Source: a virus
Lineage: Duplodnaviria; Caudoviricetes
DNA length: 64,000 nt
Reading direction: 5' to 3' (one strand)
IMG/VR virus record: IMGVR_UViG_3300030433_001804
Location: 1-64,000 of that record
Made by a program: the position numbers and the translations under genes. Below the pieces are notes generated by a model that saw only the letters and a list, made by a program, of their open reading frames with translations, did no database searches and was not told the origin of the DNA. Shown one piece after another: positions 38,285-63,468 of this stretch; within the stretch, counting starts at the first letter, position 1, and the number at the start of each line of letters is the position of its first letter.

Positions 38285-39820
38285 TTATTCCTCCAATAAT
38301 ACTGCTACATCTGTAGTATAGAACAATTTTGCTATTGACATAGCAGTTAAGAAACTGTTCTTAGTTACCTTAACAGGGTCAAATATTCCTGCTACTTCCA
38401 AATCCATGTAATCACCAGTAAGGGCATTAAATCCTAAAGAACCCGCTAAATCATCATCATGCCAATTACCTTCATGATTACTATTAAGCAATAGTGTGTT
38501 ATATGGAGCGTAAAGGGAATGCGCTAAGAAATTGAAATCTGTTTCTACCTTATCACCTGCATGGGCTAATGAAGTCCCGCCACCCAAAATAATCCCTTCT
38601 GCTAATGCCGCTTTAGTAGCATTAAGAGCATCATCTAATCTCTCCTTCCTTTCTCTTAGTTCTAAGGAAGAAGAAGCACCGACCTTTATTGTTGCCACAC
38701 CACCCTTTAGTCTAGATATTCTAGATTTAATACGGGCTTTGTCGAAACCTTCCATGTCATCTAATTGACCCTTTAGAAGTTTTATTTGTTTTTCAGCATC
38801 ACCGATACCGCCAACTACAATTGTTTTTTCTTTAGTTACTGTAATGTTTTCACAACTACCAAAGTCACTTAATACAATATTAGTAGGGTCGTCTTTGCTC
38901 TCTTGAGTAAACAACTTACCATTTACTAATGATTGAATATCGGCCAATTCGTCTAGTTGTTTATCGCCAAAATTAGGTGCAAGTATGGCACAACATTCTA
39001 CCGTTTGATTCATTAGATTCATAACTAAATTATTTAGTGCTGAACCTGACATACCACCACAGAAAATAACCAGTGGCCTACTATTAGCGGAAGCCAATTC
39101 TAACATAGGAATTAAATCCTTAAAATTCTTAAAATGAATATTAGAAATAAAGATAAGAGGGTTATTGAATACAGTTCTCCCGTTAGCAGTATTGGCCATT
39201 AAATGACTAATATAGCCTTCAGTAAGTTCCATACCCTCTCTTATTACCAGTTCTGTATTATGTGATTTAGATTCTTCTACTGTAACAATACCGTCTCTAC
39301 CTACTTTAGCCAAAGCATCACTAATTAGTTTACCTAGAACTCTATCATTATTTGCCGCTATTGTAGCGACTTCAATAATATCAGCATCTTGTATTTCTTT
39401 AGCCATTGAATCTAATTGGTTTACCACTTGGTCTGTAAAATCATCAAGAAGACCCATGAATTCGTGAGTGGTTAAATCTAGGTTACTGTGATTATGTATT
39501 GCATTACAAAATGCTTGTGCTAAAATACAAGCAGTAGTAGTTCCATCACCGCTTCCTTCTTGTGCTTTATGTGCTAGGTTTTGAACCATCTGAATACCCA
39601 TCTGAACATAAGGGTCTTCGCTACTAATATGTCTTGTAATGGTTACTCCATCGTTAATAATAACAGGGGGATTACCTTGTAGTATAACCGTTTTGGCTTG
39701 TGGGCCAAGTGTAGGTTTTACTGTATTAGCAACTAAATTAATTCCTTCTAACAACTTTTCTTTTACTTCATTTCCATGTATTATCATTCTTCCACCAACC
39801 TTGTTTGTATTCCTCTCCAC
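38285..39820 (-). CDS. groEL: Group I chaperonin GroEL
   Basis: VKPTLGP, INDGVTI, GDGTTTA, VGRDGIVTVEES, APNFGD, GGVATIKVGA, DDALNATKAA, GIFDPVKV. Confidence 0.95.
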   Translation of the reverse strand: MERNTNKVGGRMIIHGNEVKEKLLEGINLVANTVKPTLGPQAKTVILQGNPPVIINDGVTITRHISSEDPYVQMGIQMVQNLAHKAQEGSGDGTTTACILAQAFCNAIHNHSNLDLTTHEFMGLLDDFTDQVVNQLDSMAKEIQDADIIEVATIAANNDRVLGKLISDALAKVGRDGIVTVEESKSHNTELVIREGMELTEGYISHLMANTANGRTVFNNPLIFISNIHFKNFKDLIPMLELASANSRPLVIFCGGMSGSALNNLVMNLMNQTVECCAILAPNFGDKQLDELADIQSLVNGKLFTQESKDDPTNIVLSDFGSCENITVTKEKTIVVGGIGDAEKQIKLLKGQLDDMEGFDKARIKSRISRLKGGVATIKVGASSSLELRERKERLDDALNATKAALAEGIILGGGTSLAHAGDKVETDFNFLAHSLYAPYNTLLLNSNHEGNWHDDDLAGSLGFNALTGDYMDLEVAGIFDPVKVTKNSFLTAMSIAKLFYTTDVAVLLEE

Positions 39821-39995: not shown

Positions 39996-40211
39996 TCATT
40001 CAATCACCGCCATTACTTGTGCTATTGGCACAAACTTATATCCATCATATTCCTGTATCGTCTTCGCTTCACTAAAGATAACAGTCTTACCAATGAGTGA
40101 TTTGTCTATTTGACAATCAATCACTTTCCCAACATTATTCTCTTTAATCATAATTCTACTTGCTGAAGATACTTCTTGCTCTACTATTACATATTCTCCT
40201 ACTGCTTTCAT
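39996..40211 (-). CDS. groES: Co-chaperonin GroES-like
   Basis: MKAVGEYVIVE...VGKVI...GKTVIFS...VMAVIE, just upstream of groEL; short mobile loop. Confidence 0.75.
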   Translation of the reverse strand: MKAVGEYVIVEQEVSSASRIMIKENNVGKVIDCQIDKSLIGKTVIFSEAKTIQEYDGYKFVPIAQVMAVIE

Positions 40212-40933: not shown

Positions 40934-41566
40934 TCACTCTTCTTCCTCTCCTTTATTCCAATCCTGAATTCTTTCTAAGTTAAATTCTTTATAGATTTTC
41001 AACTGCTTAGGTTTATCTTGATGCCAATAGCCGAAATGACCTTCGCCACCTAATACATATGCTTCAGTCATTAGAGGCTTCCATTGACTTACTGTTTTAA
41101 TATCTACACCACTAAAATAAGCACTACCAAAAGGATGAGTGTGAATCCAGCATCTAATAGGTAATTTCATTCCTATTGGTGGTTGCATACCAAATTCAAC
41201 ATAACCCGGAGAACCAGTAGTAACATAACAATTGTTTTGACTATCAATTACTACCTGCACTTCTAAATTAGGAAGGATTTCTGTTGAAGAATGCCAAATC
41301 GCATCATGAAATTTAAAATTCTTATATGCTAATTCATCAACACAGCCCCTATCTTTCCAAGCAACATCAATAGATTCAAGAGTTAAAAGAGCCTCTTGAG
41401 TCCAAGTATTCAGAATATGTTGTTCTGCCTTTTCTCTAGCCTTCTCTAAAGCCTCAAATTCTTCTTCTGCTTTAGCCCACTCCAATTCTTCGATATATCT
41501 ATCATATCCATCATCGCCATTTCTTTTCTCTTCTTCTCTTATGAACCAATCACCGCTTCTACTCAT
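40934..41566 (-). CDS. JAB/MPN+ (JAMM) metalloprotease
   Basis: LEVQVVID (catalytic Glu) and WIHTHPFGSAYFSGVD = HxH-x7-S-x2-D. Confidence 0.9.
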   Translation of the reverse strand: MSRSGDWFIREEEKRNGDDGYDRYIEELEWAKAEEEFEALEKAREKAEQHILNTWTQEALLTLESIDVAWKDRGCVDELAYKNFKFHDAIWHSSTEILPNLEVQVVIDSQNNCYVTTGSPGYVEFGMQPPIGMKLPIRCWIHTHPFGSAYFSGVDIKTVSQWKPLMTEAYVLGGEGHFGYWHQDKPKQLKIYKEFNLERIQDWNKGEEEE

Positions 41567-42576
41567 TTCTTTTCACCTCTTAATTTCTTTAGCCTCTTTT
41601 CCATTCTTTCGATTCTTTTCTTCTGCCTTGCTTCTTTCTTTGCCATCTTTCGCTCTTTCCTTAGTTGTCTGCGGCTTGGTTTTGTTTCAGTAGGCTGTTG
41701 TTCCTTACGCCCTTTGACAACTTTAGTGGCTTCCATAACTAGGGCAATATTGTCGGGGTTATTGGAGTTTATTAAATGTTCCAACCTTCCCGCTATTGTC
41801 TCATATGAAAATCCATATCGGGCTGTTGCCTCGTCTATGGAAAGGTCATAGAAATTAATTAGCAAATCTAAGTCTTTAAATTTATTCCATTCTTCTTGCA
41901 TAGATTGAATGTTTTTCTTTACCGTTGGCTTCGCCTTTCTCTTAGATTTTGTATCCCAGTTTTGACTCATAGTTTCTTTTTCCTTGATATAATACCACTG
42001 ACGATTTAAGGCGTCCTTGCTTCTTTTCAATATGCTAGAAAGTTTTTCCGCATCTTTAGCACTCCCACAACTACTAATCAAGTTTATTTCCTTCTTAGTG
42101 TATTTCTTTGGTGCTTTTCTTTTTGGTTTCTTTGTTGGCTTTTCTATTTCTTGTAATAGTTTTCCTCTTGCTAATTCTTTTTGAATAGCAGGAGCATTAG
42201 CAAACAGTCTTTCATCTGCGGGAGCCTTATGATAAAATAAATAATTAATCTGCCTTAGATTAAGTTCAATACCAAATTGTTCGTAAAAGGCTAAACTAAT
42301 TCTAGCAAAAGGCATACCATTAAACTTACAAAGATGAACAAAATCTATTTGTTCCTGTGTGTATTTAGCCCGTGTGCCGTAACTTTTCACTTCGGGAATG
42401 ATAGTTTTCCTTTCTTCGAGTTTCTGTATCTTACTGTAAATAGAATGATATCTTCTATTCACACCATATCTCTTTTTCATCAACTTTGCTATCTTTTTGA
42501 TTGAATATCCTTTTCTCTTACTTCTTAATGCATATATTTCTTGTTCTTTCGTCCATTTTGCCATTTTAATCACCAA
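41563..42576 (-). CDS. Multi-repeat HTH/Myb-like DNA-binding protein
   Basis: Three repeats starting KWTKEQE, KYTQEQI, KYTKKEI, each followed by HTH-like helices; very basic. Confidence 0.6.
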   Translation of the reverse strand: MVIKMAKWTKEQEIYALRSKRKGYSIKKIAKLMKKRYGVNRRYHSIYSKIQKLEERKTIIPEVKSYGTRAKYTQEQIDFVHLCKFNGMPFARISLAFYEQFGIELNLRQINYLFYHKAPADERLFANAPAIQKELARGKLLQEIEKPTKKPKRKAPKKYTKKEINLISSCGSAKDAEKLSSILKRSKDALNRQWYYIKEKETMSQNWDTKSKRKAKPTVKKNIQSMQEEWNKFKDLDLLINFYDLSIDEATARYGFSYETIAGRLEHLINSNNPDNIALVMEATKVVKGRKEQQPTETKPSRRQLRKERKMAKKEARQKKRIERMEKRLKKLRGEKK

Positions 42577-42854
42577 TAATTATTGTTTTTCCATTTTGGC
42601 AGTTGTTCTAATTGAACTTTAGCGTCTGCCCACGCTGTAAGTAATTCGCTGTCACTGTAATCTGTTCCTAATTCTTCAAACAGGTTAAGAACAGTAACTA
42701 TAACAGAACGCTCATCTTCTGTTAAACTATCTAGCAAATCCATTTTCCTTAATGACTCTAAGACATCAGGAAATATTTGTCTAAGTTTAGCAACAAAAAG
42801 ATAGGAAGCGTTATCTAAATTAGTGTGAGTTAAATCATCCCATTTAGGTATCAT
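42570..42854 (-). CDS. Hypothetical protein
   Basis: ATGA overlap with ThiF gene. Confidence 0.55.
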   Translation of the reverse strand: MIPKWDDLTHTNLDNASYLFVAKLRQIFPDVLESLRKMDLLDSLTEDERSVIVTVLNLFEELGTDYSDSELLTAWADAKVQLEQLPKWKNNNYW

Positions 42855-43417
42855 ACATTCACCACCTTAAAATCACAAACCTCTTCATCGTTAAACCAAC
42901 GCTGAATCCATTGTGCGCCCATTCCTGCAATAGCAACTTGCATGAAATGAACTCCTTTATTTGAGCCATCCCATGAATCTCCTTGACAACTAAATGACCT
43001 TTCTTCACCTGCTAACAATGTATCATACATTTTAGGGTCAGCAGTATAAGATACCATAGCCGCATTACGACCCTGCGCTCTCAAATCTAACCATTTCAAA
43101 TCTTTACAATTATACATGGTTCGCCTTAGACCTATATTATCTACACAACAAATAACTAAATCATATCCTTTCATTTGTTTTTCACTAAGAACTGGATATT
43201 GTGATGCGTTAGAAACAGAACCATAATAGGTATCTTTCATAACTACTGCTTTGTTTAAACTAACATGACCACTACCAAAATTTTGGTATGGTAAATTCTT
43301 TGTTTCTACCTTATCGGGGTCTGCTACTGTTATATCATACAATTCTACTTTATCTAAAAGCGGTATCAAGAAACTCCCAATACCACCTGCTCCAATTACT
43401 AATATTTTTCTTTTCAT
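42851..43417 (-). CDS. E1-like ThiF/MoeB-family activating enzyme
   Basis: VIGAGGIGS, DPDKVETKNLPYQ, NKA, DLVICCVDN; candidate catalytic Cys in FSCQ. Confidence 0.92.
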   Translation of the reverse strand: MKRKILVIGAGGIGSFLIPLLDKVELYDITVADPDKVETKNLPYQNFGSGHVSLNKAVVMKDTYYGSVSNASQYPVLSEKQMKGYDLVICCVDNIGLRRTMYNCKDLKWLDLRAQGRNAAMVSYTADPKMYDTLLAGEERSFSCQGDSWDGSNKGVHFMQVAIAGMGAQWIQRWFNDEEVCDFKVVNV

Positions 43418-43710
43418 TTACATCCACTTCTCCATTCTTCATATTCTTTTACTGTCAATACTTTTTCCATAATAGATAGAAAAAATCCAGAAACTTCTTT
43501 TCTTTTTTGCTTTCTACCCACATCTCTAATGTAGTCTATAATACCATTCAACCGCTTGATTTCTGCAAGCAAGTAATCCTCAAACTCCCATTCAGCAGGT
43601 ATGAATCCTTCAACCCTTGCGTTTTGATATTCTTCGTATTTATCTGTGTCAATCTGTTTTTTATCCATTTTTATTCTCTCCTTCATATTAAATCTGCTAA
43701 TTCGTCCCAC
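43414..43710 (-). CDS. Hypothetical protein (IDTDKYE family)
   Basis: IDTDKYEE...LLAEIKRL. Confidence 0.5.
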   Translation of the reverse strand: MGRISRFNMKERIKMDKKQIDTDKYEEYQNARVEGFIPAEWEFEDYLLAEIKRLNGIIDYIRDVGRKQKRKEVSGFFLSIMEKVLTVKEYEEWRSGCK

Positions 43711-44195
43711 ATATCTTCTCCCGCAGTAAAGGATTTTCTTGAGAAAGTGGGGTTTCTCGTTCTTAGAGCAGTATATACTCCTATCGTAATTATAGGGTAT
43801 GAATCACCAACTTCAAGCCCTAGCATTTCAAGCATTATCGGGTGCATATCTTCTGTAATTATAGAATCATTAGAATGGTAAGAAATATCCGACATGGCAT
43901 ATGGCATTCCTTGAAACAGAATTACTTTATGTCTATACAACGGTTGTTCTTGCTCTATCTTTTCGGATTGCAATTCCCACTTGACCCACTGTAAAAACCC
44001 ATCATACGCACTATCTTCATCAACATCATTACCATGCATATCTCCAAAAAGGAATAAAACTTCATCTTCTGTGTATTTATGAGGAGGTAGTTCTGATAGA
44101 TACTTTACTTTTCTATCAACATCCATTCCCATTCTGTAATCATTTGGATTTCTAATATCATCTGTATCTTCCGGTGGTATGTCAATTCTTACCAT
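43683..44195 (-). CDS. Hypothetical protein in Ubl locus
   Basis: 170 aa acidic ORF with GAGGAGG SD. Confidence 0.6.
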   Translation of the reverse strand: MVRIDIPPEDTDDIRNPNDYRMGMDVDRKVKYLSELPPHKYTEDEVLFLFGDMHGNDVDEDSAYDGFLQWVKWELQSEKIEQEQPLYRHKVILFQGMPYAMSDISYHSNDSIITEDMHPIMLEMLGLEVGDSYPIITIGVYTALRTRNPTFSRKSFTAGEDMWDELADLI

Positions 44196-44620
44196 TTATT
44201 CTTCCTCCTCAAATTCGTCACTAAATAATTCTCTTTCTGAACAGTATAATCCATCTGTTTCCAAACTATCTAGCCAATCGTTTATTCCGCAACGATATGC
44301 TATCGGGTCTACACGGTATAATACCGTAGATGGCGACCACAACATACCACAAACATCTATATCTTCATAACAATCATCTAACATTTGATTGTATCTTTCT
44401 GTTATTTCTCTTCTGTATCCATTCATTTTATTCACCATATTCTGTTTTTCTTCTTTGTGCGCCACATACTTTACAATGAGAGAATGCAACGACAACTATT
44501 TCTTTACCTATTTCATCATCCCAAAAGGTATGATAATAGTCTAAGTCCTTATCAACCCAAATATGATTACATTTAATCATGTATTCATCTTCTTCATTTA
44601 TTTCATATTCCCATCCCATT

Positions 44621-45475
44621 TTACTCACCTAATTTGTTCAGTTCTTTTCCTTTAATTTCTTTCAAAGACTCTACACCTAATAGTGTAAGTAAGTTCTTAC
44701 ATTCTTTACCTATCTTAGTTCTATGGAATCCTGTTTGTTCAGATATGAACTTACAAGAATATCCTCTAACAAATATGGTAGAGGCTAATACACATATAGC
44801 CGCATAATAACATCTAGACTTATTGAAGTTACTATTTACGATTAGCGTCTCAAACTTCTGCATTACTTTATTACACTGATGTATGAACTGTGGTTCATCG
44901 GTTATCTTTCTAGCAGTTTGCTGAATAAGATAGGAACTATCATCTATAGAATAATGTATGGAGTTACGATAGAACTGATTTATTTTTCTAATTAGTTTTT
45001 TAGTTCTATTTAGTTTAACATCAAATTCTTTCGCAACATCTTTGAGAGGGTGTGGTGTTCTATTTTCTTTTAGAAGATAGTAAACAATAGCGGTTGCTCT
45101 TTCTTCTAAGGTAAAGTTCCTAAGTGTATGGCTATTGTATAATTCTAAATACACTTTTTGTATTCTTTCTGTAAGATTGATTGGTAGTCTTAGATTAGCC
45201 ATAACCATATTACAATGAGTAATGCCATTGATAACATTTCTCGGCAATACTGGATTGTGTCTATTATATTTAGAAGCACCTTTACCTGTTACCAAAGACC
45301 CTAATCTGCCTTTATCAGCACTGTGCTTTAGTGAATAGTTATCTCCTCTTTCTACTGGATTAACCGTTTCTTCAAACATACCTGTTATGATAACTAAACC
45401 ACATTCAGCACAACACTTCTCTCCTAGCCTCTCATCAAAGGTTATTTCTATCGAACCACATTCTTTACATTTCAT
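44621..45475 (-). CDS. tfb: Transcription initiation factor B (TFIIB/TFB-like)
   Basis: N-terminal Zn ribbon CKECGS...DERLGEKCCAECGLVI, then two cyclin-like repeats. Likely start ATG 45475. Confidence 0.85.
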   Translation of the reverse strand: MKCKECGSIEITFDERLGEKCCAECGLVIITGMFEETVNPVERGDNYSLKHSADKGRLGSLVTGKGASKYNRHNPVLPRNVINGITHCNMVMANLRLPINLTERIQKVYLELYNSHTLRNFTLEERATAIVYYLLKENRTPHPLKDVAKEFDVKLNRTKKLIRKINQFYRNSIHYSIDDSSYLIQQTARKITDEPQFIHQCNKVMQKFETLIVNSNFNKSRCYYAAICVLASTIFVRGYSCKFISEQTGFHRTKIGKECKNLLTLLGVESLKEIKGKELNKLGE

Positions 45476-46631
45476 TAAAATCAACTCTATATTCATTGGC
45501 ATCTGCGACAATATATCGCTTTATTGTATTCACTATTGTTATTGTAAAAGTATCATTGAGTAGGGCTAACGCTCTAGCAGCAAATTGGTCGCCTAATGGA
45601 GAACCTTTAGACATATTATCTATGCATATCGGGCCTTGCCATTTAGGATTATTTACTATCTTTATTTCTTCGCCCGTTGGTTCTCCTTCATCATTGAGAA
45701 CCTTTTCAAAAGAAACAACTGGTTGCCAAATATAAGTAGAAACCATTTGAATATCTGATTTATACCTATTATTTTCTAACATCCAATCAAATTCTTTTCC
45801 ATGAATATAGATACGATGTAAAGTATCTTCTTCATATTCTGCTTTGAGTCTCTTAGGATGTTGTGCTAGCAAGTCATTAACTAATTGTATTGCTCGCCTC
45901 TCAACTAAATCTTTCATTCTATTCTGTTTCAAAAACTCTATCATAACTTTGAGTTCAGAATCTAATGGTTCTCTATCCATTGTCATAGAATATAATTTTC
46001 TAGGAGAGATAAATTTCAGTTTACTTCTTTTTTTACCTTCTACGAGAAAGGAACATAACTTATCCATTGTCTTTAATGGCATTGTTCCCCAAACACCGTC
46101 TGCTATTTCTATAGCGACTTCATCTGTTCCTATCATTTGAACAGGTAGTCTAACATCATATTTAGTTTCATATTCGTGAAAAGTAAACGGTAGTCTATTT
46201 TCTAGAACATATTTAATATTTTCAGGAATCGCTAAAGTATTGTAAAGCCCTAATAATAACTTAGAAGCATCTTTTTCAAAGCAAGACTTGTATGTTACTC
46301 TTGCCAAAGCGTGACAAACAGTAGATAGACTTTCTGCTTTACCATTAATATAATATCTATTCTTTCTTTTTTCTATAGCAACAGGGCAACTACCTATCAT
46401 AATAACGGCATTGTAATCACCGTGTTTTGGCATAGAAAAATAACTACTTCCTCTTGATTTAGTAGAAAGAGACGCATTCCAAAAGGAAACTAATCCACCA
46501 TGTATAGGGTCTTTAGCACTTCTATCGTATGTAATAGAGGTTTCATCCCCGACAATTCTTGCTCTTTCGCTTTTTATTTCTGTAAAATAGTATTCGCTAC
46601 TGTCGTTTGGTTTCTTTATTTTTAATTTCAT
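45465..46631 (-). CDS. Hypothetical protein with possible E2/UBC-like C-terminal catalytic motif
   Basis: NNPKWQGPICIDNM resembles the E2 active site G-x-I-C-L-D; lies between Ubl and E1 genes. Confidence 0.4.
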   Translation of the reverse strand: MKLKIKKPNDSSEYYFTEIKSERARIVGDETSITYDRSAKDPIHGGLVSFWNASLSTKSRGSSYFSMPKHGDYNAVIMIGSCPVAIEKRKNRYYINGKAESLSTVCHALARVTYKSCFEKDASKLLLGLYNTLAIPENIKYVLENRLPFTFHEYETKYDVRLPVQMIGTDEVAIEIADGVWGTMPLKTMDKLCSFLVEGKKRSKLKFISPRKLYSMTMDREPLDSELKVMIEFLKQNRMKDLVERRAIQLVNDLLAQHPKRLKAEYEEDTLHRIYIHGKEFDWMLENNRYKSDIQMVSTYIWQPVVSFEKVLNDEGEPTGEEIKIVNNPKWQGPICIDNMSKGSPLGDQFAARALALLNDTFTITIVNTIKRYIVADANEYRVDFNEM

Positions 46632-46635
46632 TATC

Positions 46636-46797
46636 TCACATCATATACATATTGGTATTATCAACATTACATCTATCATGTATTTCATTTTTAATTTCTT
46701 CAGCAGTCAATAACTGACCGCCACAAACCCTACATCGGGTCGCTATACGCATGTTTTTTCTTGTGTTGATTTCATATTGGGGATTCTTTTCTTTCAT
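46636..46797 (-). CDS. Small Zn-finger protein (53 aa)
   Basis: ...RCRVCGGQLLTAEEIKNEIHDRC... (CxxC...HxxC) read from sequence. Confidence 0.6.
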   Translation of the reverse strand: MKEKNPQYEINTRKNMRIATRCRVCGGQLLTAEEIKNEIHDRCNVDNTNMYMM

Positions 46798-46824
46798 AGA
46801 AACACCATACTAAGGAATGAGGGT

Positions 46825-46866
46825 GGGGGGAAAAGCATTATGAGAGATGTGGTGGCTTTTCCCCCC
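46825..46866 (-). promoter_or_regulatory. Perfect 12-bp hairpin downstream of Ubl gene
   Basis: GGGGGGAAAAGC (46825-36) / GCTTTTCCCCCC (46855-66). Confidence 0.7.
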
Positions 46867-46890
46867 GTGAGGATTCTTAGGACTATCTAA

Positions 46891-47097
46891 TCAAAGACTT
46901 CCTCCAACAATAGCCGGAGTTAAATCTACAGATGTTACATCGTCCCAATTTATATTTGCTATCTCTTCTCTTGCCACCATTTCACTGTCAATAAATACCC
47001 AATGTGTTGGGTGAGTGTTGATTTGCTCAATGACTTCACTGCTTTCCATCACTACTTCTGTGTGTCCTGTTTCATTCAAAATTCTTAACTTAATCAT
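46891..47097 (-). CDS. Ubiquitin-like beta-grasp protein (ThiS/MoaD/SAMP-like) ending GG-SL
   Basis: 68 aa; MIKLRIL, WVFIDSEMV, SVDLTPAIVGG match beta-grasp strands and diglycine, followed by SL then stop. Confidence 0.8.
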   Translation of the reverse strand: MIKLRILNETGHTEVVMESSEVIEQINTHPTHWVFIDSEMVAREEIANINWDDVTSVDLTPAIVGGSL

Positions 47098-47131
47098 ATT
47101 ATCACTTTCCTATTTTTTCCTATTATCCTCT

Positions 47132-47150
47132 TGTATTTAAAGGGGTTCAT
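47132..47150 (-). promoter_or_regulatory. Archaeal TATA-type promoter of the Ubl operon
   Basis: Minus strand TGAACCCC-TTTAAATA; same design (TGAACCCT-TTTATATA) at 55443-55458. Confidence 0.55.
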
Positions 47151-60663: not shown

Positions 60664-60897
60664 ATGACATGGAAAGATATATTGAAGTTTAATAAAAAAT
60701 CCCTTGCGGATATAGCCGGAGAAATGGATAATATGATGGGTGGAAGAACTAAATTCCGTGAAGCCTATGAAAGTGGTAGATATGGTAATGAATCTCAATC
60801 TAAAGAAAAATTGCTTATGCTATTAGATGAATTAAAAGATGTTGATTCAAAGGCAAATAGCCTAATTAGCCATATCAAGGCTATGCCTTCTTTTTAA
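60664..60897 (+). CDS. MTWxDILK-family small protein
   Basis: Begins MTWKDILK. Confidence 0.75.
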   Translation: MTWKDILKFNKKSLADIAGEMDNMMGGRTKFREAYESGRYGNESQSKEKLLMLLDELKDVDSKANSLISHIKAMPSF

Positions 60898-60931
60898 AAA
60901 AAATCCGCCACAAATTTTTGGAGAAATTAAC

Positions 60932-61315
60932 ATGACATGGGAAGATATATTGAAACAAAGAATGACTAGAGAAGGAATAAGTGAAGAACATAGAGAAAGG
61001 CTAAGAGCAATGCCTTCTACTAAACAACCTATGTTTGATAAACGAGATAATCCTTATGATATGATAGATGATAAAGTTGATGAAATTATTGACTCTAACA
61101 AACTAGAGATGTTTCTGCAAATGTCACAGGCTCAATTTATGAGGTCTTATGATGTTAAACAATTTACTCCTGCTCAACCTCCTTATGAAAAAATAGAAAA
61201 AATGAAAGATGAACTTATGAGTTTGATAACTGAGTTGTTGGATGAATATAGAGAAGAAGCAGAAAGAAATCAAGGAGAAAATCCTTTACCTAAATATGAC
61301 CCTAAAGGCATTTAA
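60932..61315 (+). CDS. MTWxDILK-family small protein
   Basis: Begins MTWEDILK. Confidence 0.75.
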   Translation: MTWEDILKQRMTREGISEEHRERLRAMPSTKQPMFDKRDNPYDMIDDKVDEIIDSNKLEMFLQMSQAQFMRSYDVKQFTPAQPPYEKIEKMKDELMSLITELLDEYREEAERNQGENPLPKYDPKGI

Positions 61316-61349
61316 AAAAATCCGCCACAAATTTTTCGGAGAAATTAAC

Positions 61350-61601
61350 ATGACATGGAAAGATATTCTAAAAGCCCAAACTACTCTTTTACAGTTTAGT
61401 AGGCAAGCCGAAATGGATAGGAAAATTCCAGAAATAAGGGCTAAACTAGAAGGTATGCGTGGACGGGCTAAAACCACAGAAAGAGGAACTTCTGAAGATT
61501 TGGCAACCGTAAAATTAGAACAATTAGATAAGGTTAGAAATGTAGATGATTTTGAAAACTTTTATGATGATAACCTAAAATATTTTTTAGGGGAAAAATA
61601 G
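61350..61601 (+). CDS. MTWxDILK-family small protein
   Basis: True start ATG 61350 (MTWKDILK) after the repeat element. Confidence 0.75.
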   Translation: MTWKDILKAQTTLLQFSRQAEMDRKIPEIRAKLEGMRGRAKTTERGTSEDLATVKLEQLDKVRNVDDFENFYDDNLKYFLGEK

Positions 61602-62018
61602 ATGTGGAAAGATATACTCAAACTAGACATGGAAGAAGCCCGTAAATTGGGTGAAAGGTATGCTCCCGAAGATATGGAACAGGCTCGACAAGATAAGTTG
61701 AAAACTGTTCTAACTAAAGTAAGGCCAGCCATTGAGAAAATTTTAGAGATATATGTTGATGATATTGCTGATGAAGATGCAGATAGGCTAAGAATGTCAT
61801 TGGTTTCTATGATGAGAAATTTACCTATGGCTCCTAGAATGTCGAGAGATACTAATATGGAAGCAAGAAATAAGAATAAGGAAATGGTTGAAACTTATCT
61901 TGCTAGATTGGAAGACCTATATCAAGAGGATAAGTCTCCAAGAAAAACGACCAGTCTTATTGATAGGGCTAGAGAGATGAATAGAAAACACCCAAGAATG
62001 GGGAGTGGAAGAAAATGA
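61602..62018 (+). CDS. MTWxDILK-family small protein
   Basis: Begins MWKDILK. Confidence 0.75.
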   Translation: MWKDILKLDMEEARKLGERYAPEDMEQARQDKLKTVLTKVRPAIEKILEIYVDDIADEDADRLRMSLVSMMRNLPMAPRMSRDTNMEARNKNKEMVETYLARLEDLYQEDKSPRKTTSLIDRAREMNRKHPRMGSGRK

Positions 62019-63037
62019 TAAGAAAAATGGGCGAAGTTATGCGAGGGTCTGAATTAGACAAAGACGCTCAAGAAGAAATTAAGGGGTATGCAGAAGATTA
62101 TGCTGATAAACTAAAGATTCCTTCGTCACAAAGAAAGGAGTTTCTTAGTTTGATTTATGCAGGTATGATGAGTAGGTTTTATGTTAGAAATCTAAATGAA
62201 AAGGGGGATGTCAGCCCAAAGACCGGAAAAGAATTGTCTTTGATACATCCTTCAAGACGCTTAGGTTATGAAGAAGAGTCTGAAGCAGAAAACAGAAACA
62301 AGACTCAAGTTGAGAGTGCCGCAAGAAATAGAAGAAGGTTCCAAACTACCGTTGATGAGATGTCATCTGAAATCACAGAAGAAGTGGCTCAAGAGGAAAT
62401 AACCGAGTTGGCTGAAGAAGTAAAAGATTCTAATTTGAAACAGGCATTGGATAGAATGGTTCTTACTTTTAGCGATAGACTTTCTGATGATAAGTTATAT
62501 TCTGAAAGGAGAAAAATATTAGATAAAGATATTCAAGAACTTAGACAGGTAATTGAATCCGATGAGTCCTATACTCAAGAGGATATTATGGCATTTGGCC
62601 AACTTATGGCGAAACTGCAAGGAAAGCCATTCTTTTCCAAGATACATGAAGCGCAACTCAAAGATATTGCTGAAATGATGAGAAGTAAATATAGATTTGA
62701 TGATAGCAAAAATGCTTCATGGCAAGACTCGCTAAGAAAAAGCAGGGTAACTGAGGCTATCAAAAGATTTGAAGAAAAACATCTAAAAGATGAACCTATG
62801 GAATTAAGTAAAAACTATGTGGAGGAGATTGATATGAATTGGAAAGAAGTGCTAAAAGGAAGTTGCGGAACTGAAAAACTAGATGATGAAGAGTCTGAAG
62901 AAATGGAAAAGACTGAAGCAAAACCTGATTTTCTAGATTTAGATAAAGATGGTAACAAAAAAGAGCCAATGAAAGAAGCGGCTAAAGATGCTAAGAAAAA
63001 ACCTAAATCTAAGAATCCTTTTTCAAGAGATGATTAA
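62015..63037 (+). CDS. Charged helical protein with internal WxxxL(K/R) motifs and DxDxDG loop
   Basis: Internal SWQDSLRK and MNWKEVLK (ATG 62834 preceded by GGAGG); DLDKDG. Confidence 0.7.
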   Translation: MIRKMGEVMRGSELDKDAQEEIKGYAEDYADKLKIPSSQRKEFLSLIYAGMMSRFYVRNLNEKGDVSPKTGKELSLIHPSRRLGYEEESEAENRNKTQVESAARNRRRFQTTVDEMSSEITEEVAQEEITELAEEVKDSNLKQALDRMVLTFSDRLSDDKLYSERRKILDKDIQELRQVIESDESYTQEDIMAFGQLMAKLQGKPFFSKIHEAQLKDIAEMMRSKYRFDDSKNASWQDSLRKSRVTEAIKRFEEKHLKDEPMELSKNYVEEIDMNWKEVLKGSCGTEKLDDEESEEMEKTEAKPDFLDLDKDGNKKEPMKEAAKDAKKKPKSKNPFSRDD

Positions 63038-63039
63038 TC

Positions 63040-63195
63040 ATGACATGGAAAAAAATTCTAAAGAATGAAGAGGAAGAGGAACTTCCGGAGCATGTAAAGA
63101 GAGCAAGAGAAAGAGTTAGACAGGGATTGCCTTCTAAAGAACAACCGCTTATTCCTCAGTTTGATGACGAAAGGAGAATGAAGAGAGGTGAATAA
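63040..63195 (+). CDS. MTWxxILK-family small protein (51 aa)
   Basis: MTWKKILKNEEEEE... read from sequence. Confidence 0.7.
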   Translation: MTWKKILKNEEEEELPEHVKRARERVRQGLPSKEQPLIPQFDDERRMKRGE

Positions 63196-63196
63196 T

Positions 63197-63316
63197 ATGA
63201 CAAGGTGTAAACTATTAGATTCGTGGCTTGATACTCAGTCAAAAAAAATTGATAAAAAAGAAAAAGAAACAGGTAAAAATATAATATCTGATGTTCTAAA
63301 AGGCGATAAACAATGA
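63197..63316 (+). CDS. Small hypothetical protein (39 aa)
   Basis: GAGGTGA SD; stop overlaps next ATG. Confidence 0.5.
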   Translation: MTRCKLLDSWLDTQSKKIDKKEKETGKNIISDVLKGDKQ

Positions 63317-63468
63317 CTTGGAGGGATATTCTTAAGGTCGAAGATGACGAGAAGAAAATGGCAGGGGCAGTAACAACAACTTCTTCTCCTGCTCTATTCA
63401 ATGTCACATATGGATATCGTAGAAAAAAGAAAAAGAAAGAGGATGATGAAGATGGTAAAGGAAACTAA
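63313..63468 (+). CDS. MTWxDILK-family small protein (51 aa)
   Basis: MTWRDILKVEDDEKK... read from sequence. Confidence 0.7.
   Translation: MTWRDILKVEDDEKKMAGAVTTTSSPALFNVTYGYRRKKKKKEDDEDGKGN

Follow-up and report, generated by a model that had tools for sequence, protein, structure and literature searches.

Eukaryotes and a few archaea, as well as bacterial anti-phage systems, are known to possess complete pathways composed of a ubiquitin-like protein (Ubl), an activating enzyme (E1), a conjugating enzyme (E2) and a JAB peptidase. A similar set of genes is described here in a virus, IMG/VR record IMGVR_UViG_3300030433_001804, which is 96,385 bp long and rated complete by CheckV; the window, that is, the whole stretch of DNA that was analysed, is its first 64 kb (positions 1 to 64,000). 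Several features place the virus among the magrovirus-type tailed viruses of marine group II archaea (Poseidoniales), since it has a GroEL-type chaperonin and a TFB homolog, and its 68-residue Ubl has a named relative in a Poseidoniales virus (YSH_150918 gp024). The closest known system is bacterial BilABCD, Types I and II. It consists of the Ubl BilA, the E2 BilB, the JAB peptidase BilC and the E1 BilD; BilC trims the residues past the conserved Gly of BilA, and conjugation requires the cysteines of both E1 and E2 (PMC10557695). Bacterial clusters of E1, E2, JAB and Ubl genes, as well as Ubl and JAB pairs in phage tail modules, were described by Iyer et al. in 2006 (PMC1779556). We conclude, with a probability of about 0.72, that the virus encodes its own Ubl protein conjugation pathway, built like the bacterial Bil systems. 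The preliminary description had proposed such a tagging pathway, as a possible means to modify host or viral proteins or to counter host defence. The analysis supports the pathway itself: the objections named beforehand that could be examined in silico (a fold other than beta-grasp, genes that do not co-occur in relatives, a sulfur-transfer enzyme elsewhere in the genome) all failed to refute it. The folds, motifs, invariant residues, co-occurrence of the genes and absence of sulfur partners were computed here.

We infer the following chemical steps, and with them the existence of targets. Expression of the 68-residue beta-grasp protein would be driven by a strong promoter of its own and yield a precursor, with the reactive Gly-Gly masked by Ser-Leu, and the JAMM peptidase would trim this tail. 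The 188-residue ThiF-type E1 would adenylate the exposed C-terminal Gly and would probably take the Ubl as a thioester on Cys144, from which the tag would pass to Cys336 in the UBC-like C-terminal domain of a 388-residue protein, p388. The N-terminal 237 residues of p388 may dock the E1 or choose targets. The tag would then be joined to lysines of target proteins, and its removal from them may again be the work of the JAMM enzyme. All six open reading frames (ORFs) of the gene set are found on the minus strand at the positions first reported for them (Table 1).

The 68-residue protein, reported to be a beta-grasp protein ending in PAIVGG-SL, is indeed of this kind, and the AlphaFold2 (AF2) model and the fold searches agree. 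The model, based on 55 sequences, has a predicted local distance difference test (pLDDT) score of 89.6 and the topology beta-beta-alpha-beta-beta-(short helix)-beta. The Gly-Gly pair is formed by residues 65 and 66 (46900-46905) and is followed by the masking Ser-Leu tail (46894-46899); pLDDT is below 50 at residues 66-68, the second Gly and the tail. Foldseek matches are almost only ubiquitin, NEDD8, SUMO, ISG15 and MoaD (E about 1e-2, probability 0.9-0.99). In the VIA search, which is independent of Foldseek, MoaD is the top match (Z 5.3) and the Bil Ubl chain 8tyz_B has a Z of 5.1; further matches are ISG15, Fubi, SAMP1 (Z 4.1), Caldiarchaeum ubiquitin (Z 4.3), TtuB and BubA, with ThiS and CysO lower. 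Modest scores of this kind are expected for a model of 68 residues, and the match list is uniform.

Among the best 120 of the 474 homologs of the Ubl, the PAIVGG segment is nearly invariant, and the Gly-Gly is followed by zero to two variable residues in 115. The tail is a variable pair of residues in 103 of the 120, while 11 end exactly at Gly-Gly; the pairs vary freely (NL, NY, SC, SL, QE and others). Since the Gly-Gly is conserved and the tail is variable or absent, the protein is most readily understood as a processed precursor. The family has a mean of less than one Lys per sequence, and neither Lys nor Arg occurs after Arg43. With so few lysines, single tags are likelier than chains, and because the last 23 residues before Gly-Gly have no Lys or Arg, standard diGly proteomics would not work. 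Three histidines (H12, H29 and H32, in GHT and HPTHW) are invariant in this otherwise acidic, Lys-poor protein and may serve as a metal site or for recognition, as a patch on the surface of contact.

The JAB protein has the full JAMM motif that was first noticed in it: E102 together with H142-x-H144-x7-S152-x2-D155 (41102-41143), invariant in 63 homologs and present in 39 of 39 related loci. Its Pfam Prok-JAB score, 16.4 bits, is below the cut-off of 25, and the family profile matches AMSH-LP, AMSH, Sst2 and Rpn11 (E 2e-4 to 0.2). Membership of the JAMM metallopeptidases is therefore based on the exact motif and the profile matches and not on the Pfam score. The N-terminal 85 residues are acidic and variable.

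The ThiF-type E1, described beforehand as having intact adenylation motifs and a candidate catalytic Cys, does keep such motifs and has an invariant Cys. It matches Pfam ThiF (PF00899) with 52 bits against a cut-off of 28.1 and keeps the GAGGIGS loop, DPDxVExKNLxYQ, NKA and CVDNxxxR, which we take to be adenylation motifs of the MoeB type. A PDB profile search returns the ThiF-type protein 9egc (E 1e-8), UBA3, Cap2, MccB, UBA5, Uba4 and MoeB, and in PADLOC the nearest models are those of the E1 part of the Cap2 'E1-E2' proteins (E 6e-9). The NCBIfam equivalogs ThiF, MoeB and UbaA all score far below their cut-offs (for UbaA, NF047750, 23.6 bits against 450). The segment (S/N)FSCQ contains Cys144 (42986-42988), an invariant residue shared by 37 of 37 sequences; about 50 residues past the catalytic Asp, this Cys appears to occupy the position of the Cys in ThiF, MoeB and UbaA, although it lies outside residues 1-100, the part that matches solved E1s.

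The 388-residue protein with the GPICID segment is also confirmed, with its Cys336 encoded at 45624-45626. Its assignment as an E2, which the preliminary description called its weakest link, has become stronger: residues 238-388 model as a UBC fold and Cys336 is invariant, and a match to E2s at the level of sequence is lacking. The AF2 model has a pLDDT of 85.2 and a predicted template modelling score (pTM) of 0.53. For the C-terminal domain, residues 238-388 (45468-45920), a wide VIA search gives the FANCL ELF domain and Ube2S as best matches, both with a Z of 5.8, the latter spanning 115 residues; next come Ube2K, UBE2F, Ubc13, Ubc9, UFC1, the African swine fever virus (ASFV) E2, BubCD, and RWD and UEV domains. 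In a second-look search, all 50 of the top 50 rows have the UBC fold (Z 4.9-5.8), with 104-120 aligned residues over the whole E2 core and 79 for the FANCL ELF row. With Z values below the safe level of the tool, the UBC assignment is made because the match list is uniform and the chemistry fits. Eight columns are invariant among 62 homologs down to 20% identity, Cys336 being one of them, in the motif G-x-I-C-I-D-(N/Q)...S-x-G-D-Q-x3-R...N-D. In the model this Cys follows the last strand (318-335) and precedes the next helix (346-358), which is also its place in E2s. The predicted secondary structure of residues 1-237 resembles two more alpha-beta4-alpha modules.

The family of p388 is isolated in databases. 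Pfam UQ_con (PF00179) has no match in p388, in 130 homologs or in the six-frame translation of the genome, and an exhaustive profile search of 1.84 billion representatives yields 189 clusters, all of the same family, with no bridge to E2s. BFVD contains three uncharacterised homologs only, and Foldseek matches of the p388 and Ubl models all lie above E 1e-3. The ESM Atlas offers weak leads, the best at 0.82 and one viral cluster at 0.78 with Prok-E2_D in 11% of its members, and no match to the N-terminal part. Among 185,579 species genomes there is a single relative, on a contig of 1951 bp (CAXBMW010000043.1, locus L041) in a Balneolaceae metagenome-assembled genome. This contig is most likely a mis-binned magrovirus fragment, so the p388 family appears to be confined to viruses.

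The four genes were compared in 39 viral contigs, 18 gathered through the E1 and 21 through divergent p388 subgroups; the divergent loci in IMG/VR came from sub-alignments, single distant homologs and the most diverse alignment having given none. In 27 of the 27 loci whose flanking sequence is long enough, the full set of four occurs in one and the same order; in the other 12 loci, the contig stops short of the gene that is missing. E1 and JAB are found together in 39 of 39. The order is constant, running from Ubl to p388, the TFB-type gene, E1, JAB and, where the locus reaches, the chaperonin, which always lies downstream of JAB. This co-occurrence spans p388 identities down to about 21-24%. 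The gap from ThiF to JAB ranges from -60 to 1746 nt, and in several lineages the two genes overlap by 4 nt.

The genes had been described as one co-oriented run behind a TATA-type promoter. The co-orientation and the TATA box hold; the single-promoter operon does not, owing to a hairpin after the Ubl stop codon. Co-orientation itself carries little weight because the minus strand carries nearly all genes across the whole 17-55 kb stretch of the window. The G+C content of the window is about 34%. The octamer TTTAAATA occurs twice in the window against 14.8 expected occurrences, a depletion of about sevenfold, and TTTA(A/T)ATA is found at -42 to -48 in 10 of 11 close relatives carrying the Ubl; the box at 47134-47141 is likely to be the Ubl promoter. 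The hairpin has a minimum free energy of -26.1 kcal/mol (z -2.61), and in most related loci, too, the Ubl gene has a hairpin on its 3' side, unrelated in sequence and often with a T-run after it. The distance from Ubl to p388 varies from 256 nt to 5.8 kb, and in many lineages, though not in this window, a class II (B12-dependent) ribonucleotide reductase of about 625 residues fills the gap. Because the TATA box and the 3' hairpin are kept in relatives and the distance to p388 is variable, the Ubl gene is best described as its own promoter-to-terminator unit and not as the head of a single operon, to judge from these signals. A separate unit would fit a substrate that is needed in bulk. A scan for sigma-70 promoters and terminators is uninformative since the virus is archaeal.

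Several observations weigh against a Bil-like pathway. The E1, with 188 residues, is about 60 residues shorter than MoeB, aligns to solved E1s over its first 100 residues only, is without the N-terminal helices and any E2-recruiting domain, and has a Tyr where MoeB-type enzymes presumably carry an Arg (NLxRQ). In p388 the fold scores are low, as noted, there is no HPN triad before Cys336, the stretch ahead of G-x-I-C is variable, and no E2 sequence match was found in Pfam (p388 with 68 + 62 homologs), PADLOC (models that include Bil and Cap2), NCBIfam or the PDB profile search. The points on p388 would suit an E2-free arrangement similar to sampylation: activation and conjugation of the Ubl would both fall to the E1, JAB would mature and remove the Ubl, and p388 would be a UBC/RWD-like protein with another role, for example binding without catalysis in connection with the adjacent TFB. 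It is established that archaeal sampylation works without an E2 (PMC4895103, PMC2948915), and UEV and RWD domains, non-catalytic members of the UBC-like folds, are both among the matches of p388. However, Cys336 is one of only eight invariant columns and stands at the active-site position of E2s, p388 always accompanies E1 and JAB, and the E1 falls very far short of the UbaA equivalog. An E2-free pathway is, on balance, unlikely.

The location of the genes adds a further difficulty for a single pathway. Since magrovirus genomes are syntenic overall, co-occurrence is weak proof of coupling; GroEL, ribonucleotide reductase and other genes co-occur as faithfully as the four genes, and the Ubl, in its own transcription unit, can be as much as 5.8 kb from the enzyme genes with ribonucleotide reductase in between. 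In addition, crAss-like phages carry ThiF and JAB with no Ubl ending in Gly-Gly nearby. The four might accordingly be core genes that lie side by side in a syntenic virus family and work independently: the E1 could adenylate another substrate, JAB could have a polyprotein or Ubl conjugates of the host as its substrate, and the beta-grasp protein could be an adaptor. Such a coincidence has little to recommend it, because four complementary parts of one known pathway each keep their catalytic residues, which is a stronger argument than synteny, because the masked Gly-Gly needs a peptidase, and because genes overlap, E1 with JAB in several lineages and p388, the TFB-like gene and E1 with one another in divergent lineages. 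Slightly less probable still is a role of the Ubl as a sulfur carrier, in which the E1 would make a Ubl thiocarboxylate for a host enzyme of tRNA thiolation, molybdopterin, thiamine or CysO-type cysteine synthesis, and JAB would only mature the carrier. MoaD is the top VIA match of the Ubl, ahead of TtuB, ThiS and CysO, ThiF/MoeB models match the E1, and neighbourhoods of Ubl, E1 and JAB in sulfur metabolism are known (PMC1779556). The absence of a sulfur partner, noted earlier for the window, extends to the complete 96,385-bp genome: MoaE, ThiG, ATP_bind_3 (TtuA/NcsA), PALP (CysM) and rhodanese are all missing from it, in a search that covers the viral genome and not host enzymes and for which controls were positive in 12-14 of 14 genomes. 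Thus neither an acceptor nor a donor enzyme is encoded, the E1 has no rhodanese domain, its ThiF and MoeB equivalog scores are far below the cut-offs, and a conserved, Cys-bearing UBC-like protein would be left unexplained. Conjugation of the Ubl through p388 remains the preferred reading.

Table 1. Features of the tagging gene set and its surroundings in the window, with positions of two associated genes in related loci (L numbers)
Feature	Position	Strand	Evidence or remark
TATA box	47134..47141	-	TTTAAATA, 37 nt upstream of Ubl ATG
Ubl precursor, 68 aa	46891..47097	-	AF2 beta-grasp, fold matches, 474 homologs
Hairpin, terminator-like	46825..46866	-	12-bp GC-rich stem just past Ubl stop codon
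Zinc-ribbon protein, 53 aa	46636..46797	-	ORF with CxxC...HxxC
p388, 388 aa, E2-like C-terminal domain	45465..46631	-	AF2, fold matches, invariant Cys336
Viral TFB (TFIIB-like), 296 aa	44621..45511	-	Pfam and NCBIfam; overlaps 3' end of p388 gene
Four small lineage-specific ORFs (66, 99, 170, 98 aa)	43414..44628	-	Between TFB and E1
E1-like ThiF adenylation domain, 188 aa	42851..43417	-	Pfam ThiF, PDB profile, PADLOC
Two variable ORFs (94, 337 aa)	41563..42854	-	Between E1 and JAB; patchy conservation
JAB/JAMM metallopeptidase, 210 aa	40934..41566	-	Invariant motif, profile matches
Conserved 71-aa ORF, possible GroES	39996..40211	-	Directly upstream of GroEL, downstream of JAB
GroEL-type chaperonin	38285..39820	-	NCBIfam GroEL 421.8 bits; synteny
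Middle TFB-type gene in relatives	L020:11013-11663, L024:8434-9054, L031:8739-9362, L037:8544-9569
Class II ribonucleotide reductase in relatives	L012:3397-5265, L021:7471-9348, L037:5110-7017		Between Ubl and p388

The TFB gene in the middle of the set was correctly recognised as such, with NCBIfam TFIIB matching at E 6e-8 and the Pfam TFIIB zinc ribbon scoring 28.1 bits against a cut-off of 29. In every lineage whose gap was examined, the E2-like and E1 genes have a TFB gene, or a shortened zinc-ribbon/helix-turn-helix gene, between them. This middle gene is recognisably TFB in the nearer lineages (TFIIB zinc ribbon 26-33 bits), and in divergent ones a gene for a 200-residue zinc-ribbon/helix-turn-helix protein overlaps both p388 and E1. 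To our knowledge, no Ubl system includes a basal transcription factor. Since a TFB-type gene is always found between the E2-like and E1 genes and often overlaps both, the tagging set could be a tool for taking over transcription, in which host TFB, TBP or RNA polymerase would be tagged for removal by the proteasome and the viral TFB would step in; we regard this as a speculative and rather unlikely extension. One study reports the removal of sampylated TBP2 in Haloferax, which ties such tagging to transcription factors (PMC4895103). If transcription were taken over in this way, p388 with its 237-residue N-terminal region would be a self-contained E2/E3 of a virus-only family. In a wider form of the idea, the minimal E1/JAB machinery of viruses of archaea and bacteria (magroviruses, crAss-like phages) may be a branch of its own and an old one.

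The other genes of the region differ in how well they are conserved. The four small ORFs between TFB and E1 have no tblastn match in 18 related loci and no family matches, and are outside the conserved set. The 94- and 337-residue ORFs between E1 and JAB are missing in lineages where these two genes overlap by 4 nt. The small zinc finger reported upstream of p388 is confirmed as an ORF of 53 residues that ends 4 nt upstream of the p388 gene; it is directly upstream of p388 in close relatives and near the Ubl in divergent lineages, and its product has no family match in Pfam, PADLOC or NCBIfam. The 71-residue ORF before GroEL has no Cpn10 match in Pfam or NCBIfam; the Aoguangviridae profile issued by the virus taxonomy committee ICTV lists GroES for these viruses, and Philosof et al. 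(2017) expected none. One related locus (L007:7938-10817) has E1, JAB, the 71-residue ORF and GroEL directly side by side; JAB shares 4 nt with E1 and another 4 nt with the 71-residue ORF, which suggests that tagging and folding genes form a joint run in this lineage.

Two further observations concern genes outside the set. A 214-residue protein encoded at 49830-50474 matches Pfam Pyr_excise (31.6 bits; pyrimidine-dimer DNA glycosylase) and is conserved near the gene set in relatives. Nine plus-strand ORFs whose sequences are otherwise unrelated begin with MTW(K/E/R)xILK or close variants, and a tenth begins with MEWQEVLK; they are located at 60664-63468 in the window and at 65223-70279 of the genome beyond it.

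The literature searched contains no description of this set in magroviruses. Only its ThiF gene has been noticed, as a 'MoeB' auxiliary metabolic gene (AMG): the RaFAH paper lists MoeB/ThiF as a prevalent AMG of archaeal viruses, with a loose link to ubiquitination (PMC8276007). An Asgard virus preprint reports E1-like genes only, and the magrovirus papers searched, like the ICTV profile, make no mention of ThiF, JAB or ubiquitin. The kit described here belongs to a virus group that is among the most abundant in the surface ocean. If the proposed pathway is correct, viruses of prokaryotes can run a ubiquitin-style tagging of their own and do not just suffer it. It would also add a virus-only E2-like family, and the 188-residue E1 may mark the minimum for Ubl activation. 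The four proteins, of 68 to 388 residues, would make a small expressible system for asking what a virus gains by tagging in an archaeal cell.

Each of the known systems shares some features with the viral set and differs from it in others. Lambda and T1 also encode a beta-grasp protein with a C-terminal Gly (TAPI) and a JAB (TAPK) (PMC1779556), but these have no E1 or E2 and are located in tail modules, while the viral set lies among replication and expression genes beside GroEL. The only GenBank phage relatives of the viral E1 are in crAss-like phages, with 26-32% identity over 97% of its length; p388, JAB and the Ubl have no tblastn match in GenBank phages. In Bacteroides phage crAss001 (L019, 3259-5657), a full JAMM motif (HSHNNMATFFSGTD) is present in Gp77, whose annotation reads 'metalloprotease domain', and the adjoining Gp76 is a ThiF protein 26% identical to the magrovirus E1, with an extra N-terminal region of 160 residues. 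This ThiF and JAB pair seems to have gone unremarked in annotation. It resembles the viral set in being part of a replication-type gene cluster, and crAss001 has no small ORF ending in Gly-Gly within 10 kb of Gp76/Gp77 and no relative of p388.

The E1/E2/RING/Rpn11 operons of Caldiarchaeum and Asgard archaea, and canonical E2s in general, share with the viral set a UBC-fold carrier, in the virus a predicted one, whose Cys lies in G-x-I-C-(L/I)-D; in the viral set, however, there is no HPN, no UQ_con match and no RING E3 found, and the E1 is a single domain. In Type II CBASS, Cap2 provides some of the best model and structure matches of the viral E1, and a JAB partner (Cap3) is present. These matches are to the E1 part of Cap2 and cover only the first 60-100 residues of the viral E1. 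Cap2 is an E2-E1 fusion, and the C-terminus of the CD-NTase takes the place of a Ubl, whereas the viral E1 and E2-like proteins are separate and the Ubl is free. Sampylation (SAMP1-3, UbaA and HvJAMM1) is likewise archaeal, with a beta-grasp tag ending in Gly-Gly, a ThiF-type E1 and a JAMM peptidase, but it has no E2, whereas the viral set has a conserved Cys-bearing UBC-like protein and an E1 that lacks about 80 residues and does not qualify as a UbaA equivalog.

In its composition the viral set is most like Bil. Bil is a bacterial defence operon with contiguous genes in the order bilA-B-C-D, whereas the viral genes belong to a virus of archaea and run from a separate Ubl unit to the E2-like, TFB, E1 and JAB genes; the viral E1 has only 188 residues, and the E2-like domain forms the end of a 388-residue protein. 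The PADLOC models, BilD included, do not match p388, JAB or the Ubl. Both sets have the same four parts, with p388 as the candidate E2 of the virus. In both, the C-terminal Gly of the Ubl is masked by extra residues, which in Bil are removed by the JAB peptidase, and the E2 or candidate E2 lacks the canonical sequence signature; the BilA chain 8tyz_B is among the best fold matches of the viral Ubl. What is new here is the presence of such a kit in a virus, with an E2-like family confined to viruses and a minimal E1.

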